Of a DNA stretch of 64,000 nt, positions 1 through 63,506 are shown one piece after another. The translations under genes and the position numbers were made by a program. Below the pieces are notes generated by a model. The model was given only the letters and a program-made list of their open reading frames with translations. It made no database searches and was not told where the DNA came from. The DNA is taken from contig NC_086097.1 of assembly GCF_963921235.1 (NCBI RefSeq), positions 148,802,001 to 148,866,000 on the forward strand, in the 5' to 3' direction. This stretch comes from Mobula hypostoma. Taxonomy: Eukaryota. The number at the start of each line of letters is the position of its first letter. Within the stretch, counting starts at the first letter, position 1.

Positions 1-126
1 GTCCCACTGAACTGCACTCAGCCCATAACCCGCCATTCCTTTCCTGTCCGTATACCTATCCAATTTTTCTTTAAATGATAATATCGAACCTGCTTCTGCC
101 ACTTCTACCGGAAGTTCGTTCAACAC
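1..126 (-). mobile_element. CR1 LINE 3' end fragment
   Basis: Resembles the reverse complement of other CR1 3' ends in the window (e.g. 40062-40280, and 55600-55780 on +). Confidence 0.6.
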
Positions 127-156
127 TTACTTCAAGCTCCCCTGTCCTCCCCTGAT

Positions 157-545
157 AATTGACTTATCACTATATTCATGAGAGGAAAATATGCGCTGTG
201 TGTTTAATATTAAATTCGTTAGATAAACCCTTTTAGAAATGAAATTGAATGTATTAGCCACTTAACACCTATATACCGGTCGTGATTAACACCCCCCCAC
301 CGAACAGAATCGCCAAAAATGATTTGTAGAAAAAAATCGGCACGTACACGCATGCGCACCGGTGCCTGCGCAAGGCTTCATGGTCATTGTAGTCTTTCTC
401 AGGGTAAACACAACATATGTTTGTATTTGACTGCTATTCTTGTCCATTGGCAACCCTACCCCCACCCCCCCACCGAGTCGACCGGTCTGCAAGAATATTG
501 TCAATAAAAAACCGTCTGCATTGCAAAAAAGGTTGGGGACCCCTG
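157..545 (+). mobile_element. Right arm of a non-autonomous hAT (Buster/Charlie-like) element
   Basis: 157-300 and ~470-545 align with 42848-43079; ends in TIR ggttggggacccctg at 545. Confidence 0.85.
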
Positions 546-554
546 TCTTACGGT

Positions 555-895
555 CTTATGGAATTCCCTCTGTTCTGAGCCTGGCCCTCTGGTCCACAAT
601 TCCCCTACTATGACTGTGGAAAACATTCTGTCCATATCCACTCTATCTAGGGCCTAGGCTTTTCAATATTCAACATGTTTCAAAGAGGTCCACCCTAGTT
701 CTTCTGAACTCCATTGAGTACAGTCCCAAAGCCATCAAACGCTCCTCATATATTAACTCTTTCATTCCCAGAATCATTCTAGTGAACCTCCTCTGGATCC
801 TCTCCAATGTCAGCACATTTTCTTAGATAAGGGGCCCAAAGCTGCTCACAATACCTCAAGTGCAGTCTGAGCTAAGCCTTATAATGTCTCAGATT
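555..895 (-). mobile_element. CR1 LINE fragment (RT C-terminal region)
   Basis: Reverse complement resembles the LVRPHLEYC..FW..LERVQRRFTRMIPG region. Confidence 0.7.
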
Positions 896-904
896 TATAC
901 GAAT

Positions 905-1880
905 AACGTTCTACTAGAATCGGTGCAGGGCTCTCTATTGTTTGTATTATACGGTATATCAATTATTTGGATGTAAATGTAGGTGGTCTGATTATTAAGT
1001 TTGCAGATAACACACATATTGTCAGAATTGTGGATGATCAGAGAGATTGTTGAAGTATACAACAGGATATAATTCAGATGGAAATTTGAATGGAGACATG
1101 ACAGATGTTGTTTTATGATATCATTGCAGGCCAAAGGCTTGTTCTTGTTCTTATTTTGTATGTTAGCTTAGATTTTAAAAATACAAACTTCAAACTCAAA
1201 TGCACATTTATCAGTCACTAAGAAACAAGGGGCAGAAGGTACACAGTTTGTTTGCCTTCATTGGTCAGGGCGTTAAGTATAACAATAGACAAGACATGAT
1301 GCAGTTGTATAAAACTTTGGTTAGACCATACTTGGAGTATTATCTTCAGTTCTGGTTTTCACACTATAGGAAGAATGTGGTTTTAAAGAGCTGCAGAAGC
1401 AGTTCACCAGGATATTGTCTGGATGGGAGTGTATTGGCTCAAAGGAGAGATCGGATGAACTTGGATTGTTTTCACTGGCACATCAGAGGCTGAATAGTGA
1501 CCTGAGAGATGTATACAAAATTATGAGAAGCATACTGTAGATAGAGTAAATAGAGTCTTTGTCCCAGATGGAAATGTCAAATACTAGAGGATGTACTGTA
1601 GATTTAAGATGAGAGGGTAAAAGTTTAAAGGAGATATGCGAGGCAAGTGTTTTCACTCCAAGAGTGATAGGTGCATGGAATATGTTACCAGTGGAAGTGG
1701 CAGAAACAGATATGATAGTAAAGCTTAGGAGGGTTTTAACTGAAAAGAATATAGAGAACTGCAAGGAATAGAGGGATTTCAGAACACGAGCTGACAAATG
1801 GGATTAGTTTGGATTGTCATCATGTTTGCTGCAAACATGGTGGGCTGAACGGACTGTGCCTGAACTGAACTGTTCTGTGT
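905..1880 (+). mobile_element. Degenerate CR1 LINE 3' half
   Basis: KFAD motif near 997-1008; ORF 1200-1493 LYKTLVRPYLEYYLQFW; CR1-type 3' tail near 1780-1880. Confidence 0.8.
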
Positions 1881-2914
1881 TAACTTTGATTTAAAGGTAC
1901 AAACTTTAATGAGTAGTCATCAGTCACAAAAAAACAAGGAGCATAATCCATGACAGATTGCTAATTAAATGTGAATTAAAGGGTCCTCACTTTCTATCGA
2001 TGTATTGTGTTCTGCAACTACTTGTCTCACTTTGTATTGCTCAATATGCTTCAAACAGCATTGCTGACAATTTAATAACTATAACTTACTGCAGACTTTC
2101 TGCACAACGCACAGTGGAAATGTACACTGCATTCTCAGCCAGAGTGATTAATTCATGCCTCAATGTGATGCGGGTCTGATCGTTGCATGGAATTCAGGTC
2201 TATTTAGAACCATCGGGTGTGAGTTGGAGATGGAAGGGGATGCAACTACTGGTGCTTATAGCAGCTGAATGTGCTTCTCCTCTCCTGTGTTAAGGTTGTC
2301 CTTTCCTGTAATTAGGAAAGCTCTTTTATGAATCTGACAGGGTACCATCAACTCAACAGCTGTGATCCCTGCTGGAAAAGATATAGGGAACAGATAAAGT
2401 TTTTACACACGAATCTTAATGAAAATCACTTTAATGACTTTTAAAACATGTTTCCCCACAACTCCTAATCTTTACTGAGAATTCTAATCAAGAACAGCAT
2501 TTAATGCAGCAACTGTTTAAAGCATACAGTTAAAAGGTGAATTGTAATTTTTAAGCGAGGATCTATTCTATCATAAAGGAAAAGAAATGTACTCATTTCA
2601 CTCCAGAGATCTTAGACAAATGGGCAACAGTAGATTAAATTGTTTATAGCAATGATACTTAAAGCATTTTGATCAAAATGTATTTATGGAACCTCTTCAT
2701 CTATATAAATGGGTCAGAACTGATTGTACAGGCCCAGATTAGGATCTTAATTAAATAATTTTCAATTATTGGCTAATGCAATATTCTTCCTTGTTGTGTG
2801 TCATTTTCCCCCCATTTCTTCTTCTTATGCCATTTTTCCTCCTCCTGTGGTTCTGCCTGATTAAGAAGGAGGTTGTTTAGCTGGGTGAAGCAGAACAACT
2901 TAATTGTCCTATGT

Positions 2915-3165
2915 TGCATCTTCTTCTTAAGCCATTCCTCGGCAAGAGTGTCTCCAGTTCCATGGGTTCTGAGATGACTAATCTGGCCAATGTTAGACCT
3001 ACAGCCCCTGCCATAGTGGATGAGGAAGTGCTTGCTGGAATGGGTTGACAGGCAGTCTGGGAATTACTTGTGCTTTTTCTTTTGGTTAGTCTGAACTTTA
3101 TTTGGGCTTCCAATGCATGGACTCAAGGCTCTCCATGCTGCTATGCTATTTTGAATAGTTCTAGA
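2915..3165 (-). mobile_element. RTE LINE 3' end
   Basis: Minus strand encodes a decayed C-terminal motif (..GRGCRSNIGQISHLRTH) followed by a short (AAG)n tail. Confidence 0.55.
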
Positions 3166-3414
3166 CCTATGTTTTGAATAAAACAAAAAAAATTGATGAA
3201 AATACTCAGCAGGTAAAGCAGCATCTGTGGAGAAGGAAACAGTTAATATTTTCAATTTCTGATGAACTTTCATCAGAACTGAACAGTTCATTAGTTCATC
3301 ATGCACCAATAAATCAAGTATTTTATTGAAAAGCAATTGACCAGATAAATAATTATACTTCTTCCAGCACAGATGCCTCCTGACCCACTGAGATTTCGAG
3401 TACTTTTGTTAATA

Positions 3415-4206
3415 TAGTGGATTCTAGTTAATTGCGTCATCAGCTAATCTGGGCAACTGCTAACTTGGGACAACACAAAGAACAAAAACTAACAAACTGT
3501 GAAAATTGGTGGGATTCCCTTCTTTTATTTGGGATACTATGCCGCTTAATTGGGGCAGGAGACTGTTGCCAAACAGGGTCTAAGTAGCACTAGTCATGCA
3601 CACTTGCATGGCCGTTAGACATTACCTCATGCTTAAGAGTGAACAGTTTTTAAATAACATCAGTTACATGTGTTTGTGTTCAAAAACCAGCGAATTCTGT
3701 CACTTAGTTGGCGAGAAATAAGCAGTAAGACAATACCAAACTGTTTTACTTCACTGTGGATTCAAGCAATCAGGCTTGGAGATGACAGAGCTGGCCAGGA
3801 GTGAAAATGAAATAATTTCACTACTTCAGCAAGTCAGGAACTACAAGGAGTTTGAAGGTAATGACAATCATCCTGAATGTTATAATGTAAATGAAGATTT
3901 GGAGGATGCAATTGTTGATAGCATTGTATGAAGGCAGTCCATTATCTGTATGAGGTGTCTGTGTTGATTATGTTCATTGTATACAGTGAATTCCTCAATT
4001 AGTAACTATAGTCAAACTGAAAACTCAGTTTTAAAGTATTGTAGTACAATTGGTAGTGTTCTGATTTCTTCTGTATTTCATTAAAGTACATAATTAGTTA
4101 CTCAGTTTGACTTTGAACCTTTTTAACTACATCCAAGAAGCTTCAGCCACTTTATTGGGCCAAAATGTACCGATCCCTATGTGACCCAATTAACCGGAAT
4201 CAACTG
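3415..4206 (+). mobile_element. Non-autonomous pogo/Tigger-like DNA transposon
   Basis: Imperfect TIRs tagtggattctagttaatt / aattaaccggaatcaactg; second copy in opposite orientation at 29987-30801. Confidence 0.7.
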
Positions 4207-4478
4207 TGTTTCAAATTTCAAGCATCTCCTGTTCTTTGTTTTCAAATTCTTATTCCATGCTCTTAACCTATAGTACAATAAACCTTTTATCTTCAAATCT
4301 TGGAGGCCTGCATCAGCATTTCCTGACAGACTTGACAGTTTGTGTTATCAAAGATCTGGTTCAGATTTGAAATGATTCTGACTATCAGAGAAACAGAAAT
4401 ATTTAAAAAAGTTTAATTAATAAAAATATTACAAAACATTATCAAATAAAACCAAAATCGATTATTTAAATTTCTTTA

Positions 4479-5510
4479 CAGTGCCTATAATAAGTATTCA
4501 GCCCCCTTGGAAGTTTTCAGGTTTTATAAATTGAATCACAATGGATTTAATTTGGCTTTTTTGACACTGATCAACAGAAAAATGACTTTTGTGTCAAAGC
4601 GAAAACAGACCTCTATAAAGTGATCTAAATTAATTACAAATATAAAATACAAAATAATTGATTGCATACCTATTCACCTCCTTTAATTTGACACACCAAA
4701 TCATCACTGGTGCAGCCAATTGGTTTTGGAAGTCACATGATTAGTTAAATGGAGATCACCTGTGTGCAGTCAAGGTGTTTCAATTGGTTATAGTAAAAAT
4801 ACACCTGTATTTGGAAGGTCTAGTTGCTGGTGAGACAGTATCCTAACAAAAATTATCATGAAAACAAAAGACCACTCTAAGCAACTCTGTAAAAAGGTTA
4901 TTGAAAAGCACAAGTCAGGAGATGGATACAAGAGCATTTATAACTCACTGAATATCCCTTGGAGTAAAGTTAAGTCAATTAACAATAAGTGGAAATAAAA
5001 AGAATAAAGTACAACTGTAAATCTCTTAAAGCAGTCCATCCTCAAAAACTGAGTGACCATGCAAGGAGGGAACTAGCGAGGGAGGCCATAAAGAGACCTG
5101 TGACAACTCTGGAAGAGTTACAAACTTCAGAGGCTGAGATGGGAGAGACTGCACATGCAAATAACTGTTGCCCAAGTGCTTCACCAGTTGCAGCTCTATG
5201 GGAGACCGTTGGAAAAAAAAACTCACATGAAATCTCAGCTAGAATTTGCCAGAACGCATGTGGGAGACTTGGAAGTCAGTTGGAAGAAGGTTCTATGGTC
5301 TGATGAAACCAAAATTTAGCTTTTTGGCCATCAGACTAAACACTATAGTGTAAACCAAACACCGCACATCACATCAGCTAAAACACAGCATCCCTACTGT
5401 GAAGCATGGTGGTGGCTGCATCATGCTCTGGGAATGCTTCACTGCAGCAGACCCTGGAAGACTTGGAAGAATTGTGAAGGTAGAAGCTAAAATGAATGCA
5501 GCAAAATACA
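4479..5510 (+). mobile_element. 3'-truncated Tc1 transposon
   Basis: TA then TIR cagtgcctataataagtattca; frameshifted transposase from ATG 4858 through [17 protein letters not shown] and MNAAKY; no right TIR. Confidence 0.9.
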
Positions 5511-20279: not shown

Positions 20280-21285
20280 TAACATGTAAAAAACACTGGA
20301 GGAACTCAGCAGGGTAGGTCAGCATCTACAAAAAGGAATAAACAATCGATGTTTCAGGCCATGACCCCTCACCAGGACTGGAAGGTAAGGGGGAGAAAGC
20401 CAGGATAAGAAGGTGGGGAGAGAGGAAGAAGTACACGCTGGAAGGTGATAGGTGAAGGCAGATGAGGGGGGAGGCAGGTGGGATTGAGGGGGACGATGAA
20501 GTGAGAAGCTGGGAGGTGATAGGTGAAGGCAGATGAGGGGGGAGGCAGGTGGGATTGAGGGGGACGATGAAGTGAGAAGCTGGGAGGTGATAGGTGAAGG
20601 CAGATGAGGGGGGAGGCAGGTGGGATTGAGGGGGACGATGAAGTGAGAAGCTGGGAGGTGATAGGTGAAGGCAGATGAGGGGGGAGGCAGGTGGAATTGA
20701 GGGGGACGATGAAGTGAGAAGCTGGGAGGTGATAGGTGAAGGCAGATGAGGGGGGAGGCAGGTGGGATTGAGGGGGACGATGAAGTGAGAAGCTGGGAGG
20801 TGATAGGTGAAGGCAGATGAGGGGGGAGGCAGGTGGAATTGAGGGGGACGATGAAGTGAGAAGCTGGGAGGTGATAGGTGAAGGCAGATGAGGGGGGAGG
20901 CAGGTGGGATTGAGGGGGACGATGAAGTGAGAAGCTGGGAGGTGATAGGTGAAGGCAGATGAGGGGGGAGGCAGGTGGGATTGAGGGGGACGATGAAGTG
21001 AGAAGCTGGGAGGTGATAGGTGAAGGCAGATGAGGGGGGGAGGCAGGTGGGATTGAGGGGGACGATGAAGTGAGAAGCTGGGTGGTGATAGGTGGGAAGG
21101 TAAAGGGCCGAAGAGGACAGAATCCAATGGGAGAGGAGAGTTAGACCATGGGAGAAAGGGAAGGAGGAGGGACAGCAGGGGAAGAGATAGGCAGGTGAGG
21201 ACAAGAGAAGAGGTAAAGAGGGGAGCCAGAGTGGGGAATGGACGAAGAGAGAAGAAAGAGGGGAAAAATAGGACTGGAAGTGGGA
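20280..21285 (-). mobile_element. Penelope-terminus remnant hosting a minisatellite
   Basis: Starts ctggaggaactcagcagggtaggtcagcatcta, like 29019-29420; decayed hammerhead at ~20345-20380. Confidence 0.7.
20437..21094. repeat. 71-bp G-rich minisatellite, 9 full copies plus a partial
   Basis: Unit starts at 20437, 20508, 20579, 20650, 20721, 20792, 20863, 20934, 21005, 21077; near-identical copies. Confidence 0.98.
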
Positions 21286-23140: not shown

Positions 23141-24547
23141 ACATGAGACCCTCTGTTTGCTGGGGCCAAAGATGGATATTGCGCTCTAGTTGTCTACATG
23201 ATAAGCAAGCCAGTATGCAACCAGGGCAGTAGGATGTGAAGAGCAAGCTGCTGTTGCCCATGCAGCAGGCTTCCCCTCCCCATGCCGATGAATCCAAAGG
23301 AATGACAGAGACCAATACAGTTTGGCACCAGTAGCGTTGCAGGAGCTACCAGTCAGCACTGAACTCAACATAGATACTGCCTTAGGGACTCCAGCTCTAG
23401 ATTTTCCCTTGGGGCTTACTCCTGAAGCTTTTCTCATGAGTGGGTATAGCCACAAGGCAGCAGTTGTTTGAGATCAGAGTTTGCCTTCTCCTAGGTGTGC
23501 TGCCAACCATGGCTAATGAGCTCCGTCTGCCCAAAATTTAAGGTGCCAGTAACCCGCCTTTGCTCCTTCTCCTGTCAGTGACCACAGTAAGTCACATATG
23601 AAGGCTGTCATGCATTTAATATTTCAGTGGTATTTGAGTATTGTTTGATTAAGCATTCCTGTTTGTTTAAATAATTCGTTACGGGTTACGTGTAAGAGTA
23701 AGTGAATGGCATACATCATGACGCTACCACGAGGTAAGTCCATGCCTCACTTAAAGTGAAAAATGAACTAAAGATTCCCATTCTGGATTCTCCGTGTTTT
23801 CCTTCCAGTCAGTTTTTATGCTTTGGAGTTACAAAACACAAGTGGTGGTCACGTGGTATTTTTTTAAAACGACCCATGTCTACTATCTACCCGTTGAAGT
23901 GCAGCGAGACGTTTAAGTTTTTTTAAAAAAGTGCAACGAGACAGTCAAATTGAAAGAAAGTGCAGCTTTTTTTTTCTTTGGAGAAACATGTTTTCTTTGC
24001 AAAAAAGATGTTCAAGTTTTTTAAAAAGGCAGAAAAATGGAAGAATTAATGGGTTTATAAACAGTGACTACCAGGGGATAATAATCATAAAAAAGAGCAG
24101 AAATGACTGGCTACATTTGAAAGATTTACATGTTTGATTTCATGACAAGTAACTGGATTTTGTATCCTGAGCAAATTGAGTAGTATTTTGAAGCAAATCA
24201 AACAGCCAACTAGAAGCAATTGCCAATTTTGCTGAGTACATTGGATTTAAAGGCATACAGTTTGCTTTGAAGTTTAACTGCTCCAACCAAGCCAGCTGAA
24301 ATAAGCATTATATCATTAAGGTAATGCAAGAACATTTAGAACCAAAACCATTGTTGATTGCAGAATGCTTTAGGTTTCAGAAGTGGAATCATAGGGAAGG
24401 GGAATCCATTTCAGTATACATGGCTGAATTGAAGAAATTGTCTGAATTGTCAGTTCAATGATACACTAATTAAGAAAGGTACTGGAAGATGCCACTACTA
24501 TCCCATGCTGTACACCATGAACCATTGCCCAATAGAGGGCAACTAGG

Positions 24548-25060
24548 TGTGGTGCCAACCTATGTGCCTCTGGTTGGAAAGCAAATTTAACCAAGGAAGG
24601 ACCGTGCTGCTCAGAGGAAGTCTGAAAGTAATGAAAGCACAGGTCCGACTGCAACAGTTTTTATAGGTCATATATCTGAGAAAGCCCCTGATATGTTGAT
24701 CAGGCAGTTATTTGTGAAATGTGGCTTGGGTTTAAGCTGGAAGAGAGTTCAATGAGCTTCGGGAAAGTTGCTAGCATTTGACTTTTGTGAGTATGAAGAA
24801 CCAGAATCAACTTTGCATGTAATCAAATGGGAGACAAGAAGTTGCTTGTAAAAGTAGATGAAAAGACCAAACACCAGCTGGATGAATGGAAAGAAAAAAG
24901 GAAAGGACATACAAAACCACCAGATTCATCAGATATGTTGTGGGGCAGAAAACAAAAGGAGAGAAGAAATAGTAAGAAAGAGAAGGGTGTGAAATAGAGA
25001 AGGAACGTGAGAAAGAAAAAGAAAGGGATCAAAGTAGATCCGGAGAGAAAAGCTGAGGAA
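24548..25060 (+). pseudogene. RBM25: Intronless RBM25 fragment (RRM domain plus part of the ER-rich region)
   Basis: Translates VVPTYVPLVGKQI*PRKDRAAQRKSESNESTGPTATVFIGHISEKAPDMLIRQLFVKCGLGLSWKRVQ*ASGKLLAFDFCEYEEPESTLH..QMGDKKLLVKVDEKTKHQLDEWKEKRK, matching the RBM25 RRM as I recall it; has stops and deletions. Confidence 0.92.
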
Positions 25061-25209
25061 AGCAGAAGAAATGTATCCAGAGCTGTCAGAACCACTTCCT
25101 GCGGGCTCAGAGTCAACCCCTACAACCACAAAATGCAGGAGCCCCAGAACCTGAGATTGTTTCACTGCCAAGCAGCGGGGGGAGGGAGAGGGAGAGGGAG
25201 AGGGAGAGG

Positions 25210-25211
<2 letters not shown>

Positions 25212-25305
<94 letters not shown>
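25212..25305. repeat. (GT)n microsatellite preceded by (GGGAGA)n
   Basis: Direct reading; about 47 units. Confidence 0.99.
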
Positions 25306-25307
<2 letters not shown>

Positions 25308-26090
25308 ATTGAGTTGGGAGTTTATAGCCAAGCCGGGAGGAGTGTTTTCACGTGATAAGTGCCTTGGTTAGAGTAAAAACTAAACAAAACTCACATTCCA
25401 GATGCTCCATGATTTCCTTCCAATTAGATTTCATATTTTGCCGTTACAAAACATAACAAAGGTCAAGAGCTGGACTTGGTTGTCAGAGGCTATTTGAGAC
25501 GCACGCCATTGGGAGCCCTTAATAAGTTGCGGGAGCTTATACCCACTAGCTCGGTCAGATATGGCACTGGTTTTCATTTAATCTGTGCTTATGTACGGCA
25601 ATATTTCAAAAAATATATAATGAAACACATTTTGACTCAAATAATTAATTGGTTGAGTTATATTCATCAATCTCCCCCTTATCGCAAAACACACTGTTGT
25701 TAATAATTATTTTTTATACATTTATTTCATTTGAATGTAGAGATGTAAAATTACTTAAAGGTTACAATGAAATAAACTGATACAACTTAAATTTTATTTA
25801 ATTATGTTTATATTAGTATCGTTATTTCATATTGTTTGAGGTTTTAGGCAAATTCTAAATAAATGGTAAAACAAATAAAAATCCTAAGGAATAACAGCGC
25901 TTAATTTAAAAAATTTAATTTTGCAAACTTTGACCACTGTTCCAGGCGGTGAAAGGTCAAACAGTGAGGTGAGAACATGCGCACTGCGGCCATTCGGCAT
26001 TGTTTAAGTTGTAAGGGTGGGGAGACTGGGCCAACCGTTTGCTTTCGGTTGAAAATCGAATTAACGTATTTGCAATCCGTTAGGCAGATC

Positions 26091-26123
26091 ATGAACGGAG
26101 CTATGGCTCTGGCTCCAGCAGAG
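26091..26123 (+). CDS. Exon 1 (coding part) of an unidentified Lys/Glu-rich protein: MNGAMALAPAE
   Basis: ATG with A at -3; donor GAG|gtgagg; phase 0. Confidence 0.75.
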
Positions 26124-26240
26124 GTGAGGCCTTAGAAATAGCAAGAAAAAAAAAGTTCCTATGTATTATTTCAACCCCTCGGGTATTTTCGTGCTTTTGC
26201 CCCTCATGTTATATCTTGCTTGTTTGTATTTGCCCGGCAG

Positions 26241-26280
26241 GGAGAGAGTTTACCTCCTGATTCCGCTTCCTGCTCGACGG
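26241..26280 (+). CDS. Exon 2: GESLPPDSASCST(G)
   Basis: Acceptor ttgcccggcag, donor G|gtgagt; phase 0 to 1. Confidence 0.8.
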
Positions 26281-29018
26281 GTGAGTAGATTTGTTCTTCG
26301 GAGGACTCGCCGAGTGATAACACGCGGTGTTTAATGTTGCCTCCTGGTACACTGAGAAACTAGGTGCCGGACTCCCGCCCTATGCCTGAACCGAATCCCC
26401 ATAACGGAACATCAGTACTTACTGAAGTCGGCACGCTGGCACTGTTTTACCTGTCTGGCACGTACGCACTCCCGCAGGTTGTCCAGTCACCCTGACTTTA
26501 TCCCTTCCTTTCTCTGATATTTGCTCCGTGACTGATGGCTGTGCACGTTTCGTTCTTTTCATTCATCATGACATTGATACATCGCCAAGTGAAAGTGTAA
26601 AAGACTGGTGTTGCTGATCTCAAAGATATATGAACACTGAGTCGCAAAATATTAGGACTAAAGAATAGGGGGAATGAGTGAAATGATTGAGACCATGGAG
26701 GGATTTGGAAGAGGGTAAGAGGTTTAAAAATTGAGTTATGGTTTTAGTGTTTTCAGGTTTCAAAAAATCTTGAAGTGATAAGGATTTATTTAAAATGATT
26801 GCAACAACTTAAAGCTGTGGACTTTTGACCATTATTGGGGGGAGAAGGAAAGACAGGAATGGGCCATAAATGCTGGTCTTGCAATTATGGGAAATGAATT
26901 AAAAACAAAATGATAGTAGTTTCTTGAGAGCAGTGTAAATTCATGAAATGGTAAGCTAATGGGGCAATGCAAGTTAGATGTTCCAAAGTCTTCAGGACAG
27001 TTCAAAGCTATAGCTGTAAATGAATACACAGGGATAGAAAAATATATCAATAATTCTATCAATAATTTTCTTTAAGGGAATAGCATAGATAATTTTTCTT
27101 TTAAAGAGAAACCATTTAAGAAGTCATGCATTAGTGAAATGAAGAGCTTGCATACAGTTTTGAGGTCTGGTCAAGATGATGTATTGAATGAAAATTTGCT
27201 AATGATGCAGATATTAATAAGAAAAAGCAACCAAGGTTGATGCTGATATTTTGTTTCATAAATCAGTGAAATGGGATACAGGAATGAATGCAGATGGATT
27301 TTTGAGATTGAATGGATGACATGCAGTTGGTTAAGGTCTTCTGTTATGGGATATCTAAGTCTGCATAAAATCTTAAGGATTATAACTGAACTCCAAAACA
27401 ACAAAAACTGAGCAGAAAAAGGCTTAAAGAAGCCAATCAAAATACTATTCTGAACAAATGAGGTTAGCTTGAAACATACTGAGAGCTTCACCATTGCAGA
27501 AGGTTGAGCGTAATCAAAAATTGGATTGAATTGCAAATTAGTTTGCGTGTCACAGAATTGTTGATGTTTTGTTGTGAAGCAAATGGATAAGACAGATACT
27601 GGTTCGTCAGAGGTAAAATTACGACTGAAAGCTCAAAACTGCAATCTTGTTACAATATAGAACAATGATGTCCTGGTGAAATATGTGGATAGGTTAGTGC
27701 AAGAAACCTGGGAGATAATACAAAATGATACAAGATACAACATGTTATTTTTCAAAAAATCATCCTAAAAATCAACTCAGATGTCAATGGAAGAGTGTTA
27801 AAACCAAGTGTTGTAATAGTATGGAATGCTGTGTTTCTTGCAGGAATTGATTCAGAATGAAATGATGGAATAAACATAACCATTCAGTTTAGATTTATAA
27901 AAGATTGCTTCTTGACTGCAAAGCAAGAAGAGTATAAGAGTCTGAAAATTGTTATTTATGCATTCAGCATAAATTGATGGTCATAATATTGGGGTAACAA
28001 ATACGAAACTTTATTTTCCAATAATAGACAAAATCATTATCAGAAGAATATATTAGCACTAAGAGTTGATAGAGTGAAAGAAAATGTCAAAAAATAGGAA
28101 ATTTGTTCAGCTGCGTTTCAGTAGAAAACAACATTTTAAATTTTGTAGAACTCCTAACGCGGAGCTCTCCAAGTGCACAAGTTCAGAGAAATGTTTTATG
28201 TGAATTAACAACTAATTTGAATGTGCAGATTAATTGTTGCCTTTGGTATATTAGATTACCTCAATGTTTTGGGGTGAAGACTCAATCATGCCATTCAGTC
28301 TAACACTTAAGTGGTATAGAGAAAAATTAAGTTTTCAATATCTGATGTCCATACATTAAAACATGACTATGTGTTCAGTATTTTGCTGGCTCAATTTAAA
28401 AGTTTCCATGGCTAAATTTCAGTGTAATGGTGCTGGTGTGCTTCCTAACTGTTTTACAACTAACATTGCTGAATAGATTATTTGATCAGCATTTGACTGC
28501 TGTATATGCTGACTGTGAATTTTTGCTATTTTATGAAAACGTGTCAGAGATATGAAATTGCATATTTAGTATCTTTGGCTATCTGATCAGGAAAAATCCA
28601 AAAGAATGCAGTAGTCAGAATGTTGTTTGTAACGATTTGTACAGTAATGATATGATCATGTTATAATTTCAACATTTGGAAGTACGTTTTTAATTGAAGC
28701 TTGGAAACTTTGTAGCTGGTACTGTTTGTGGGTCAAGAAGGTTAAAGGTATATAGGATCCATGATAAGTTAGCCAATTGAGTCCAAAACTGGCTTGGTGA
28801 AAGAAGGGAAAGGATAGCAATGGATGAATGTTTGGAATGTAAGTGTAATTAGTGGCACCCTGCTGGGATCTTTGTTATTTGTGAAATGCATTAATGTTTA
28901 AAATCTAGGTATATGATTTAATAAGTTTGAATAACACAAAACTGGATGCTGGAGATAACAAGGAAGGTTATTTAAGGCTACACCAGGATGTAGATAAAAT
29001 GGACAGTTAGGTGGTGCA

Positions 29019-59761: not shown

Positions 59762-62700
59762 GGTGATGGACCTTAAACGTTCACAGTGTGAAGAGTACTG
59801 GGCGTTGTGTCAGCGCGCTTCGGTACTTGAACACTGTGAACGCCGACGTGACCTTCCTCCAGGAATGCGGCCTGCCGCACCTCAGGAGTGGTTCCAGGGT
59901 TTGTCGGTGTGGTCGGGGGGCAACAATTGTCACGCTTCCGGCCTGGGGATTCTGCTGCAGGGAGGCAACTTCTCAATCACCCAAGTTAAAGAGGTGGTTG
60001 CAGGGCGCCTCCTGGTAGCAGATGTCAAATACCGGGGCACTCCACTCCGGCTGATCAACGTGTGTGCCTCCTCCCTGCGGAGCAAGTGGCTGGCCGTCTT
60101 CGAGCAACTCCCACAGCTGCTGGTGATGTCCCAGCCGGTCGTTCTGGCCAGAGACTTCAACTGCACCATTGATGCGGCTGGAGGATCCAGCAGTGCCGAC
60201 GGTAGGCTAGACAGTACCTCTAGACTCCTGAGGGAAACGGTGAAGACAGCCAGGCTCCCCCTGTGGCACCCCCACAGGTGGAGCACAGCCACAAGCCACC
60301 TGGACACGATCGGACGGCTCAGCCCGCTCCTGGATTGACTTCCTCTTCCTGTCAGAGTCCCTCACGGTCAGGTCCACCGACGTCAAGCCGGTGTTCTTCT
60401 CTGACCATTGCCTTCTGAGAGCCACCTGTCTCTTACGGGAGGACCAGAAGGCAGGCAGGGGGACGTGGAAGCTGAATGTTAAGCTGCTGACCCCAAAGAA
60501 CATCGAGGAATTAGAGAGGGAGTACACAGGTTGGAGAACCTTGAAAGCCTTCTTTGATTCCCTGGTTCACTGGTGGGGAGCCACCAACGAGAACATTAAA
60601 AGGTTCTTCATCCGCAAGGGTATCCAGAAAGCAAGGCAGGAGCAGAAGGAACTGCGTAAACTCCAGACAGAGTTGCAGCAACTCCTCCTTCTGCAGTCGA
60701 AGGGGGTGGATGTCAGGGAGGAATTGCGAGAGGTGAAGGGCCGGCAAGCCCAGCACCTCGCCACCGAATCCTCCAAGATCATCTTCCGATCAAGGGTCCG
60801 AACCGTGGAGCAGGACGAGACGTGATCACGCTTCTTCTTCCAAAAAGGTGCACGGGGGAGTTCTGTGATCCACAACCTTAAGGAAGAGGATGGCTCAGTC
60901 GTGTCCTCGCAGACCGACATACTGTGGATCTGTAAGTCCTTCTATGCCAGACTGTACGACGAAAAGGCCACAGAATCCACAGCCTCCCGCAACTTCCTTC
61001 GTTTATCATGCAGGTCTTGGACGACAGCAAGCGGGAGAGTCTGGATCAGCCACTGACCCTGGACGAGTTGACAGGCTCCATCCGTTCCTTTGGGTCGGGT
61101 AGGACTCCCAGAAGCGACAGCTTACCGGCTGAGTTGTACTCGGCTCTGTGGAACTGGATGGGCCCAGACCTGCTGGAAGTGTACAGCGCTATGCTTCTAG
61201 CTGACTGTATGTCAGAGTCCATGAGGAAGGGCATCATCACCCTCATCTACAAGCAAAAGGGGGAGAGGGAGGACATTAGAAATTGGAGGCCCGTATCACT
61301 CCTGAACGTGGATTACAAGATCCTGTCCAAGGCTATCGCCAACAGGGTCAGATCTGCTCTGGGACAGGTGATCCACCCGGATCAAACCTGTGCTGTACCG
61401 GGCGGAAGATCTTAGACAGCCTCGCGCTGCTGAGGGACACCATCGCCTACGTGCAGGACAGGGGGGTCATTACCTGCCTAGTCAGCTTGGACCAGGAGAA
61501 GACCTTCGACCGGATATCGCACACGTACATGGCGGACGTGCTCTCCAAAATGGGATTTGGGGAGGGGATCCGGAATTGGATTAGACTGCTCTACATAGAC
61601 ATCTGTAGTGCAGTCCAGGTCAACAGGTGGGAAACAGACAGCTTCCCCATCAGGTCTGGGGTTAGGCAGGGCTGTCCCCTCTCCCCTGTCTTGTTTGTCT
61701 GCTGTATAGAGCCCTTTGCCGAAGCCATCGGGAGGGATAAGAGCATAAGAGGGGTGACGCTGCCAGGCAGTGGAGGGACCCAAGTAAAAACCTCCCTGTA
61801 CATGGACAACATCACCGTCTTCTGCTCTGATCCGAGGTCAGTTGGCAGGTTGATTGGCATCTGCGAACAGTTCGAGCTAGCGTCGGGGGCCAGGGTCAAC
61901 CGCATGAAGAGCGAAGCCATGCTCTTCGGCAACTGGCCCGACCGATCCAGTGTCCCCTTCACCATCAGGTCTGACCACGTGAAGGTGTTGGGGATCTGGT
62001 TTGGAGGGGCTGAGACGTGCAACAAGAACTGGCAGGAGTGGACTGCCAAGGTGAAACAGAAACTGGGACTGTGGGGAGGGCGCTCCCTGTCGATAACGGG
62101 CAAGAACCTGGTCATCAGGTGTGAGGTGCTCTCAGGGCTGCTGTACTTGGCGCAGGTGTGGCCCGTCCCCCGTTCCTGCAGCTGGGAAATCACCCGAGCT
62201 GTCTTCAGATTTGTCTGGGGATCCAAGATGGAGCGGGTGAGACGGACCGTCATGCACAAGTCCCTGGACAGCGGGGACAAGAACGTCCCCAATGTCGCCC
62301 TCACCCTGATGGCCAGCTTCGTGTGTGGCTGCATCAGGCTGTGCGTGGATCCCAGATACGTGGGCACAAAGTACTACTATGTGCCCAGGTTCTACCTGTC
62401 GCCCTGGCTACGAAGGATGGGTCTGGCCCCTTTCCCGCACAACACCCCTGTTAGCTGGTCGTTGCCTCCTTACCTGTCCTTCGTAGAAAAATTCTTCAAG
62501 GCCAACGCCTTTGACCACAGGGCCATTAGACAGTGGTCGGCACGTACTATCCTGCAGGCACTGCAGGAGAAAGACGTGATGGACACAGTGGGATGGTTCC
62601 CTGAGCAGACCGTCCAGTTCATCTGGCAGAATGCCTCATCGCCAGATCTCACCAACAGGCACAAAGACCTTGCCTAGCTGGCGGTGAGAGGGGCCCTCCC

Positions 62701-63506
62701 AGTCAGATCCCTCCTGTACGCCTGGAATGTCGTCTCCGCACCCCACTGCCCACGGGAGGACTGTAATGGGGTGGAGTCGGTGGCTCACCTCTTTCCACAC
62801 TGTGGGTTCGCATCGAAGGTGTGGAGGAGAATGGAAAGGACAGTACTAAGATTCATGCCCAGCAGCTGCGTTACCGAGGACTCCGTGATCTACGGGCTGT
62901 TCCCGGGGACGCACATGGAGACAAACATCCAGTGCTGCTGGCAGATCATCAATTCGGTGAAAGATGCGCTTTGGTCTGCCCGAAACTTGATGGTTTACCA
63001 GCACATGGAGATGTTCATGACTGAATGCTGCCGACTGGCTCACTCTCGCCTGCAGGAGTACGTGCTGAGGGATGCACTCAAGCTTGGTGCGGCCACCGCG
63101 AAGGCCCGGTGGGGAAGGACCACAGTTTAAGGTTCATGACCCGTGGGAGTGTGAGGGGTTGGGTGGGGAGGAGACTAACCCTCATCAGCGGTGTGGACAG
63201 ATAATCAACATGGTGCCCCAGGAGTGGGTGGAATTGTTAATTTGGAAAAAGCATTAGAACCAACGCCTGCCTTTATTGTTGATAATTTTATTGTTAATAA
63301 GTCTTAACTCTTGACCAAGGGTTGAGAGTAAATGAACGGTTTTTTTGTAAACATCTTTCATTTGTAAATGAACAGAGAGTCAACGCATAATTTTATTGTA
63401 AATAACTTTATTGAATAAGGACTCAGAGTCAATGAATGTTTTTTCTTATATGTAAATAACTTTATTTTGTAATACTTCTGAATAAAGTATTTTTGGAGAA
63501 AAAAAA
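59762..63506 (+). mobile_element. Tx1-clade (L1 superfamily) LINE: near-complete frameshifted ORF2, 3' UTR and polyA
   Basis: APE (FLQECG, FFSDHC, GTWKLN), RT (NWRPVSLLNVDYKIL, SLDQEKTFDR, GVRQGCPLSP, LYMDNI), zinc finger (CPREDC..ESVAHLFPHC); stop 63128-63130; AATAAA at 63481; short polyA; candidate TSD attattag at 59754-59761 and 63506-63513. Confidence 0.95.

Follow-up and report, generated by a model that had tools for sequence, protein, structure and literature searches.

A Decayed Ty3/Gypsy Element with Spliced RBM25 Sequence in Place of the pol Core Belongs to a High-Copy Family in Three Related Organisms

Introduction

Tan et al. (2016, PMC5131818) described LTR-mediated retrocopies from flies and mosquito as well as from zebrafish, chicken and mammals. 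In the portion of that report drawn on here, they are spliced mRNAs, truncated at the 5' and 3' ends, which replace part of the internal ORFs and have the LTR element on both sides; they carry no polyA or TSD of their own, microsimilarity at the switch points is their key signature, and they are capable of secondary retroposition, with 18 sites given for nine retrocopies. In maize, the LTR element Bs1 is non-autonomous and contains spliced exons captured from three host donors; its 1–5 copies have common switch points, and it gives an expressed chimeric protein (excerpts of PMC13317346 and PMC5131818). At least 189 captures account for the 425 gene-carrying LTR elements reported from the same plant (PMC2774510). 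Crocodilian ERVs captured the mRNAs of KIT-ligand and nectin3 and are found in 9 and 6 copies, respectively (Chong et al. 2014, PMC4299795, in excerpt).

Here we describe a locus at positions 23601–25463 (+ strand) of a 64-kb window, the whole stretch of DNA that was analysed, which is a decayed, shortened, non-autonomous copy of a Ty3/Gypsy LTR element with spliced RBM25 sequence inside it. Its structure is that given above for the retrocopies of Tan et al.; however, the secondary sites in that text are few, whereas the copies here are of the order of a thousand, old and common to three organisms. Bs1 resembles our element in its non-autonomy, spliced exons and common switch points, and differs from it in that ours has one donor, far more copies and, in this copy, no sign of function. 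The crocodilian elements are likewise old vertebrate LTR elements that replicated with captured host mRNA across related species, but, as excerpted, they are retroviral and not Gypsy, retain pol and carry nearly complete ORFs under purifying selection, whereas in our element the insert stands in for pol and amounts to no more than a domain-sized piece. The capture mechanism is already published (Tan et al. 2016); what is unusual is the scale of the RBM25 family, since the animal and maize examples in the texts considered range from one to a few tens of copies, against about a thousand or more here.

Our search of the literature found no paper on an RBM25-carrying Gypsy element or retrotransposon family. 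Nor does RBM25 appear in the body text of the VGP preprint on pseudogenes or of the manta genome preprint, whose supplements may list it. As far as the excerpted text goes, the VGP preprint gives MIPOL1, SUDS3, SDF2L1, SLU7 and ZNF276 as leading parents of retrocopies among cartilaginous fishes and ties retrocopy numbers to non-LTR elements; these top parents may instead be LTR-carried families like the one described here.

Results

The element, all of whose features lie on the + strand, is bounded by AAGGC at 23601–23605, within a high-copy host repeat, and AAGGT at 25459–25463. These TSD sequences, read from the filled site, agree at 4 of 5 positions, which has a chance of about 2% at fixed positions. 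The 5' LTR (23606–23841, 236 nt) begins with TGT and lacks the terminal CA; it is directly followed by a PBS-like site (23842–23853) in which G-TGG adjoins the LTR with the same spacing as in L001, a Gypsy relative. A leader or 5' UTR (23854–24102), which would contain the packaging region, is placed between the PBS and the gag ATG. A tRNA gene search of the 64-kb window found none. At the other end, a polypurine tract at 25330–25342 precedes the 3' LTR (25343–25458, TGT...ACA) in the layout of the PPT-LTR junction of L001. The original prediction had proposed this order of TSD, LTR, PBS-like site and PPT, and each of them lies where it was put or close by, with one correction for the 3' LTR: at 116 nt this LTR corresponds only to the last half of the 5' LTR, about 120 nt of whose 5' part is missing from it, and the (GGGAGA)5.5 and (GT)47 microsatellites that stand before it (25178–25305), between the pol tail and the PPT, are not LTR. 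The two LTRs are identical in 83 of 111 aligned columns (75%), as had been estimated by eye, and 18 of the 28 differences are transitions; with the 3' LTR ends slightly shifted, the local alignment score is 64, and none of 2000 shuffles scored above 29, the highest value among them.

A purine run at 25170–25210 was considered as the PPT, with the 3' LTR overwritten by the GT repeat. We rejected it because an L001-like PPT-TGT junction is found at 25330–25345 and because the missing part of the LTR does not match 25306–25346, where 226 of 500 shuffles reach the score.

Behind the leader, a gag remnant with stops and a frameshift extends from 24103 to 24467, where it is cut short. It aligns by tblastn to residues 1–116 of P0153, a fish Gypsy polyprotein (Scleropages), and 24103–24446 is 53% and 64% identical to it (E 1e-29), which bears out the gag remnant predicted from 24103; blastn also matches it to the gag of L001. 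The latter (positions 1–4536 of a metagenome contig, probably host DNA in the sample) is a near-complete fish-type Gypsy with PR-RT-RH-IN order and a single stop between the RNase H halves. P0153 and L001 share with our element gag homology, PBS/PPT spacing, short LTRs and a Pro/Thr-rich pol tail, and differ from it in having protease, RT, RNase H and integrase, all four of which the window element lacks; they are relatives and not the partner element itself. No Gypsy relative was found in viral contigs.

Two short stretches point to what is left of pol. The 10-residue peptide encoded by codons 24470–24499 has its best score at the site before RT in both P0153 and L001, a score reached by 23 of 1000 shuffles for P0153 and, more weakly, by 314 of 1000 for L001. 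Together with paralogous contigs, this peptide points to 24468–24499 as a probable short remnant of the pol stretch that separates protease from RT, and not a part of RBM25. On the 3' side, the Pro/Thr/Glu-rich segment 25063–25175 is probably the pol tail behind integrase, as had been proposed: its contig depth (57,000) is at Gypsy level, and the tail of L001 at the corresponding position is of similar make-up, yet the two do not align. An exact search for the pol-tail pattern in metagenome contigs gave no match. In L001 the counterparts of the two pieces flanking the insert, both assigned with moderate confidence, stand about 2.5 kb apart, the 3' one being placed solely by its position and make-up; the insert therefore replaces internal ORFs and does not break up an otherwise continuous element.

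The insert itself is spliced RBM25 coding sequence including the RRM at 24547–24977, placed by protein alignments and exon junctions, followed by telescoped ER/RS-rich RBM25 pieces at 24978–25062. Over 24549–24907, identity to a protein named RBM25 is 63–78%; the frame 24549–24827 matches 350 proteins with a best E of 6e-30, and one top match is named RBM25. In a profile search, the 120 matches listed of 499 all have the RRM family and nearly all are named RBM25; none of the named proteins among these 120 is a cartilaginous-fish RBM25. Frameshift-tolerant alignment to Xenopus and gar RBM25 begins at 24537–24549 and runs through 24977, beyond which two short ER/RS-rich pieces end at about 25065 and, being of low complexity, are less certain. 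Other searches were less informative: five of the six window fragments compared with Pfam matched no family and the RRM fell below the cut-off, a first search for RBM25 homologues yielded 0 among 16 candidates, and a PDB search returned only other RRM proteins. The predicted identity and sense of the RRM and ER-rich piece thus stand, while its extent is revised, since 24468–24499 is probably pol and internal deletions are present. Stops, frameshifts and deletions interrupt the reading frame in both gag and RBM25, and the segment 24547–24977 carries two stops, frameshifts and small deletions.

That the insert derives from spliced mRNA had been claimed without a map of the exon junctions. We located these via ORFs on genomic contigs of other animals that read from an RBM25 exon into an intron. 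At junction A, 15 of 32 ORFs leave RBM25 exactly there and continue with V and unrelated sequence; at junction B, at least 8 of 55 leave and continue with G and unrelated sequence (14 of the 15 cases with G being listed); and at junction C, RBM25 is left by 3 of 6. An acceptor-like run precedes the start of the VLVPT exon in 4 of 11 ORFs. In the element the three junctions fall at 24716/7 (A), 24774/5 (B) and about 24907 (C), and the sequence continues through each without a gap; the insert is a partial, intron-free copy of host mRNA that lacks at least three introns. Junction places are those of other animals, and by their conservation the host RBM25 would be expected to have introns A, B and C as well.

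The number of such copies was approached through contigs of public runs aligned on 23450–25170 at 80% likeness. Runs X1 and X22 are of organism A, X5 of B and X9 of C; the evidence comes from X1, X5 and X9, and X22, which may be RNA and whose contigs would not reveal expression, and runs X10–X20 (organisms D–K, shares 0.07–0.11) were excluded from the counts. The locus's own contig in X1 has a depth of 17.4, while the RBM25 bins between 24494 and 24899 have summed depths of 4,063–27,413, with single sites up to 40,819. RBM25 depth in X1 is therefore 234 to about 2,350 times that of a single copy, as summed contig depth and not as a copy number; at its height this summed depth is roughly 1,500–2,300 times the single-contig value. 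X5 and X9 show the same RBM25 depth and contig pattern. At each RRM site listed, about 70–120 or more distinct contigs differ from the window (the count stops at 128). Among the 32 contig pieces listed of 57,354, 24 are from X1, X5 and X9; eight of these 24 bridge junction A intron-free at about 16–19% difference from the window, so that other spliced genomic copies exist, and three, of which every organism supplies one and all of which show a difference of 19%, extend from 24468 into RBM25. The hybrid is thus a high-copy family in three related organisms, and on a rough estimate the family probably comprises hundreds to a few thousand copies, about a thousand or more. Because paralogous contigs of all three share the Gypsy/RBM25 junction, the capture occurred in an ancestor and then spread as a non-autonomous element. 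Gag depth is 2.8 times and tail depth 1.4 times the RBM25 peak, an excess that fits a partner family without the RBM25 insert.

The first part of the 5' LTR is also present in very high copy, the bin 23624–23681 having a depth of 81,000 in X1. Over 23730–23814 this depth drops from 81,000 to about 460, and many contigs skip the segment with other letters. LTR subfamilies seem to differ in this middle part, and, given its short 3' LTR, the element may be a recombinant between two such subfamilies.

The original prediction had taken the direct join of gag and RBM25 as the capture junction, and this does not hold. Two of the three paralogous contigs that align from 24468 carry 120 and 145 extra upstream letters unlike the window gag, and the third starts at that point. 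In X1 and in X5 alike, about 150 contigs depart from the window sequence at 24445. Since other copies align from 24468 with different upstream letters, the join at 24467/8 arose by a secondary deletion that this copy or its sub-lineage underwent. A search for the same junction elsewhere, proposed at the outset, accordingly finds the join of pol remnant and RBM25 in three organisms and not that of gag. The peptide scores at 24470–24499 suggest, if modestly, that the 5' switch of the family lies near 24500, behind the short pre-RT remnant. The 3' switch back to Gypsy lies between 25043 and 25071, with X1 site depth rising from 2,074 at 25042 to 45,776 at 25072; among the 32 contigs listed of 57,354, none bridges the junction of RBM25 and the pol tail.

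This copy is dead and old, as had been proposed, given its stops and frameshifts and an LTR divergence of 25 ± 8% (JC 0.31). Close pieces in other organisms differ from it at 12 of 549 and 6 of 306 letters (X5) and at 11 of 191 (X9). These pieces span deletions proper to this copy, and none of those listed holds the flank junction; they probably represent orthologues in organisms B (2% difference) and C (6%). Because LTR divergence is about 5 times the A–C distance and about 15 times the A–B distance, the copy would be much older than both splits, if the LTRs were identical at insertion. At a substitution rate of about 1e-9 per site per year, which is uncalibrated here, its age would be of the order of 100 million years. 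The LTR divergence of 25% is somewhat above the 19% of the paralogues, although the intervals overlap and the paralogues were selected at 80% likeness or more.

Discussion

Taking these observations together, we consider it likely that this locus holds a dead, deleted member of a Gypsy family with many copies, that RBM25 was captured once in that family by template switching, and that the hybrid then spread by means of the enzymes of an intact partner. In such a history, RBM25 mRNA would have been packaged into a Gypsy particle, where RT would have moved from the pol tail onto the purine-rich ER/RS region of the mRNA, copied back to about exon 3 and rejoined the Gypsy RNA just before the RT domain, presumably with microhomology at the junctions, so that some 2.5 kb of pol, by the distance in L001, would have been dropped. 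The product would have retained LTRs, PBS, leader, PPT and probably gag-protease, and the hybrid would have been copied in trans to of the order of a thousand sites. One copy would then have entered an older repeat at this locus with a 5-nt TSD; the end of gag and protease, stretches of RBM25 and a portion of the 3' LTR would since have gone from it, and it would have decayed neutrally. LTR-mediated retroposition of RBM25, as originally put forward, is therefore upheld in that spliced RBM25 replaces the pol core, but this locus does not record the capture event itself.

Within this history the RBM25 piece is most likely a passenger. An unlikely extension, compatible with the capture and spread just set out and adding a function to them, is that the RRM was translated with gag-protease or acted within the RNA, and aided packaging, export or evasion of silencing in a way that led to amplification. 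The copy number is very high next to the published examples, the domain that was captured is the one that binds RNA, and at the two in-frame RRM stops of this copy 92–96% of X1 depth reads otherwise, so that the family was open at those sites; a freshly captured mRNA would, however, be open without selection. The relation of the pol frame to RBM25 was considered on the 12 of 43 length differences listed. None of the 120 RBM25 matches listed (451–2000 residues) carries a retroelement domain, and, in the text of PMC5131818 considered, shortened non-autonomous elements amplify without new functions. A broader proposal is that the element itself made use of the RRM, as a Gag-protease-RRM fusion or as an RNA signal, that this explains thousands of copies, and that, in view of the odd top retrocopy parents of cartilaginous fishes, gene-carrying LTR families could be a main route by which gene fragments were duplicated en masse in that lineage; it is speculative, and we regard it as comparably improbable.

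The 5' end of the insert bears on a second explanation, a transduction of the retroviral type, in which a Gypsy element lay in or upstream of RBM25, its read-through transcript was spliced or underwent deletion so that Gypsy became joined to an RBM25 exon, and only the 3' junction arose by recombination, in the course of reverse transcription, before the family amplified. The clear RBM25 match does begin at an exon start preceded by AG (24545–46), and the segment before it, 24500–24546, gives no significant protein alignment, to RBM25 or otherwise. This segment, however, is rich in purines and at 47% pyrimidine has no polypyrimidine tract, in contrast to an acceptor region; it does not continue Gypsy pol as that is read in P0153 and L001, and its length of about 47 nt fits the preceding exon, which is 50 nt in human RBM25. 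The segment is likely a decayed upstream RBM25 exon, and a transduction appears improbable.

A third explanation holds that a LINE made an RBM25 processed pseudogene within a Gypsy element, and that deletions trimmed it before non-autonomous amplification. LINEs are present in the window, with RT at 60936–63130, and this copy shows that large deletions are common. The hallmarks of such an origin were nevertheless not found around the insert, in agreement with the original prediction: no A-run longer than 6 nt occurs in 24400–25200, the longest lying inside coding sequence, and the longest word common to the regions around the two junctions, a purine-rich one of 7 nt, lies away from the insert ends, so that no TSD of 7–20 nt could be placed, though an old one could have decayed. 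In addition, RBM25 stops in the ER/RS region, its 3' half and UTR being absent, and pol is gone exactly where RBM25 stands, so that two extra deletions would have been needed before amplification; we hold this origin to be very improbable. A one-off capture at this locus, a single LTR-mediated retrocopy, would fit the 64-kb window, in which neither the element nor its flanking repeat occurs a second time, but is hardly credible given the roughly 70–120 distinct contigs per RRM site, a depth three orders above single copy and the paralogous junction-spanning contigs of three organisms.

As a family, the RBM25 copies offer a natural experiment on whether coding sequence taken up by an element is simply carried along or is favoured by selection because the element gains from it, and raise the question of whether the copies yield small RNAs or decoy transcripts that act on an essential host gene; they are also a warning that "RBM25-like" gene models and retrocopy counts in related genomes may be transposon copies. 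The present copy alone adds little beyond the decay and age of the family.

Around the element, the host repeat (23200–23605 and 25464–25570), presumably the end of a LINE, reaches a depth of 107,000 in X1, and most of its copies part from the window at 23579. Beyond the 3' LTR, the stretch 25500–26700 is CpG-rich (o/e 0.75–1.22, against 0.31 window-wide) and contains an ATG (26091) and two donor-like sites (26124 and 26281); it is probably the promoter and first exons of a gene in the same sense that begins no more than a few hundred bases from that LTR. Within the element, CpG o/e is 0.83 over 23700–23999, which covers the latter half of the 5' LTR along with the PBS region, and 0.00 in gag; perhaps low methylation near the neighbouring promoter retained it. 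Farther away, GC-rich pieces of a non-LTR ORF2 at 60936–63130 contain RVT_1 (E 1.5e-22) and zf-RVT with an open stretch of 465 codons, and a G-rich minisatellite with a 71-nt unit occupies 20437–21094 in 9.3 copies that are 98% alike.
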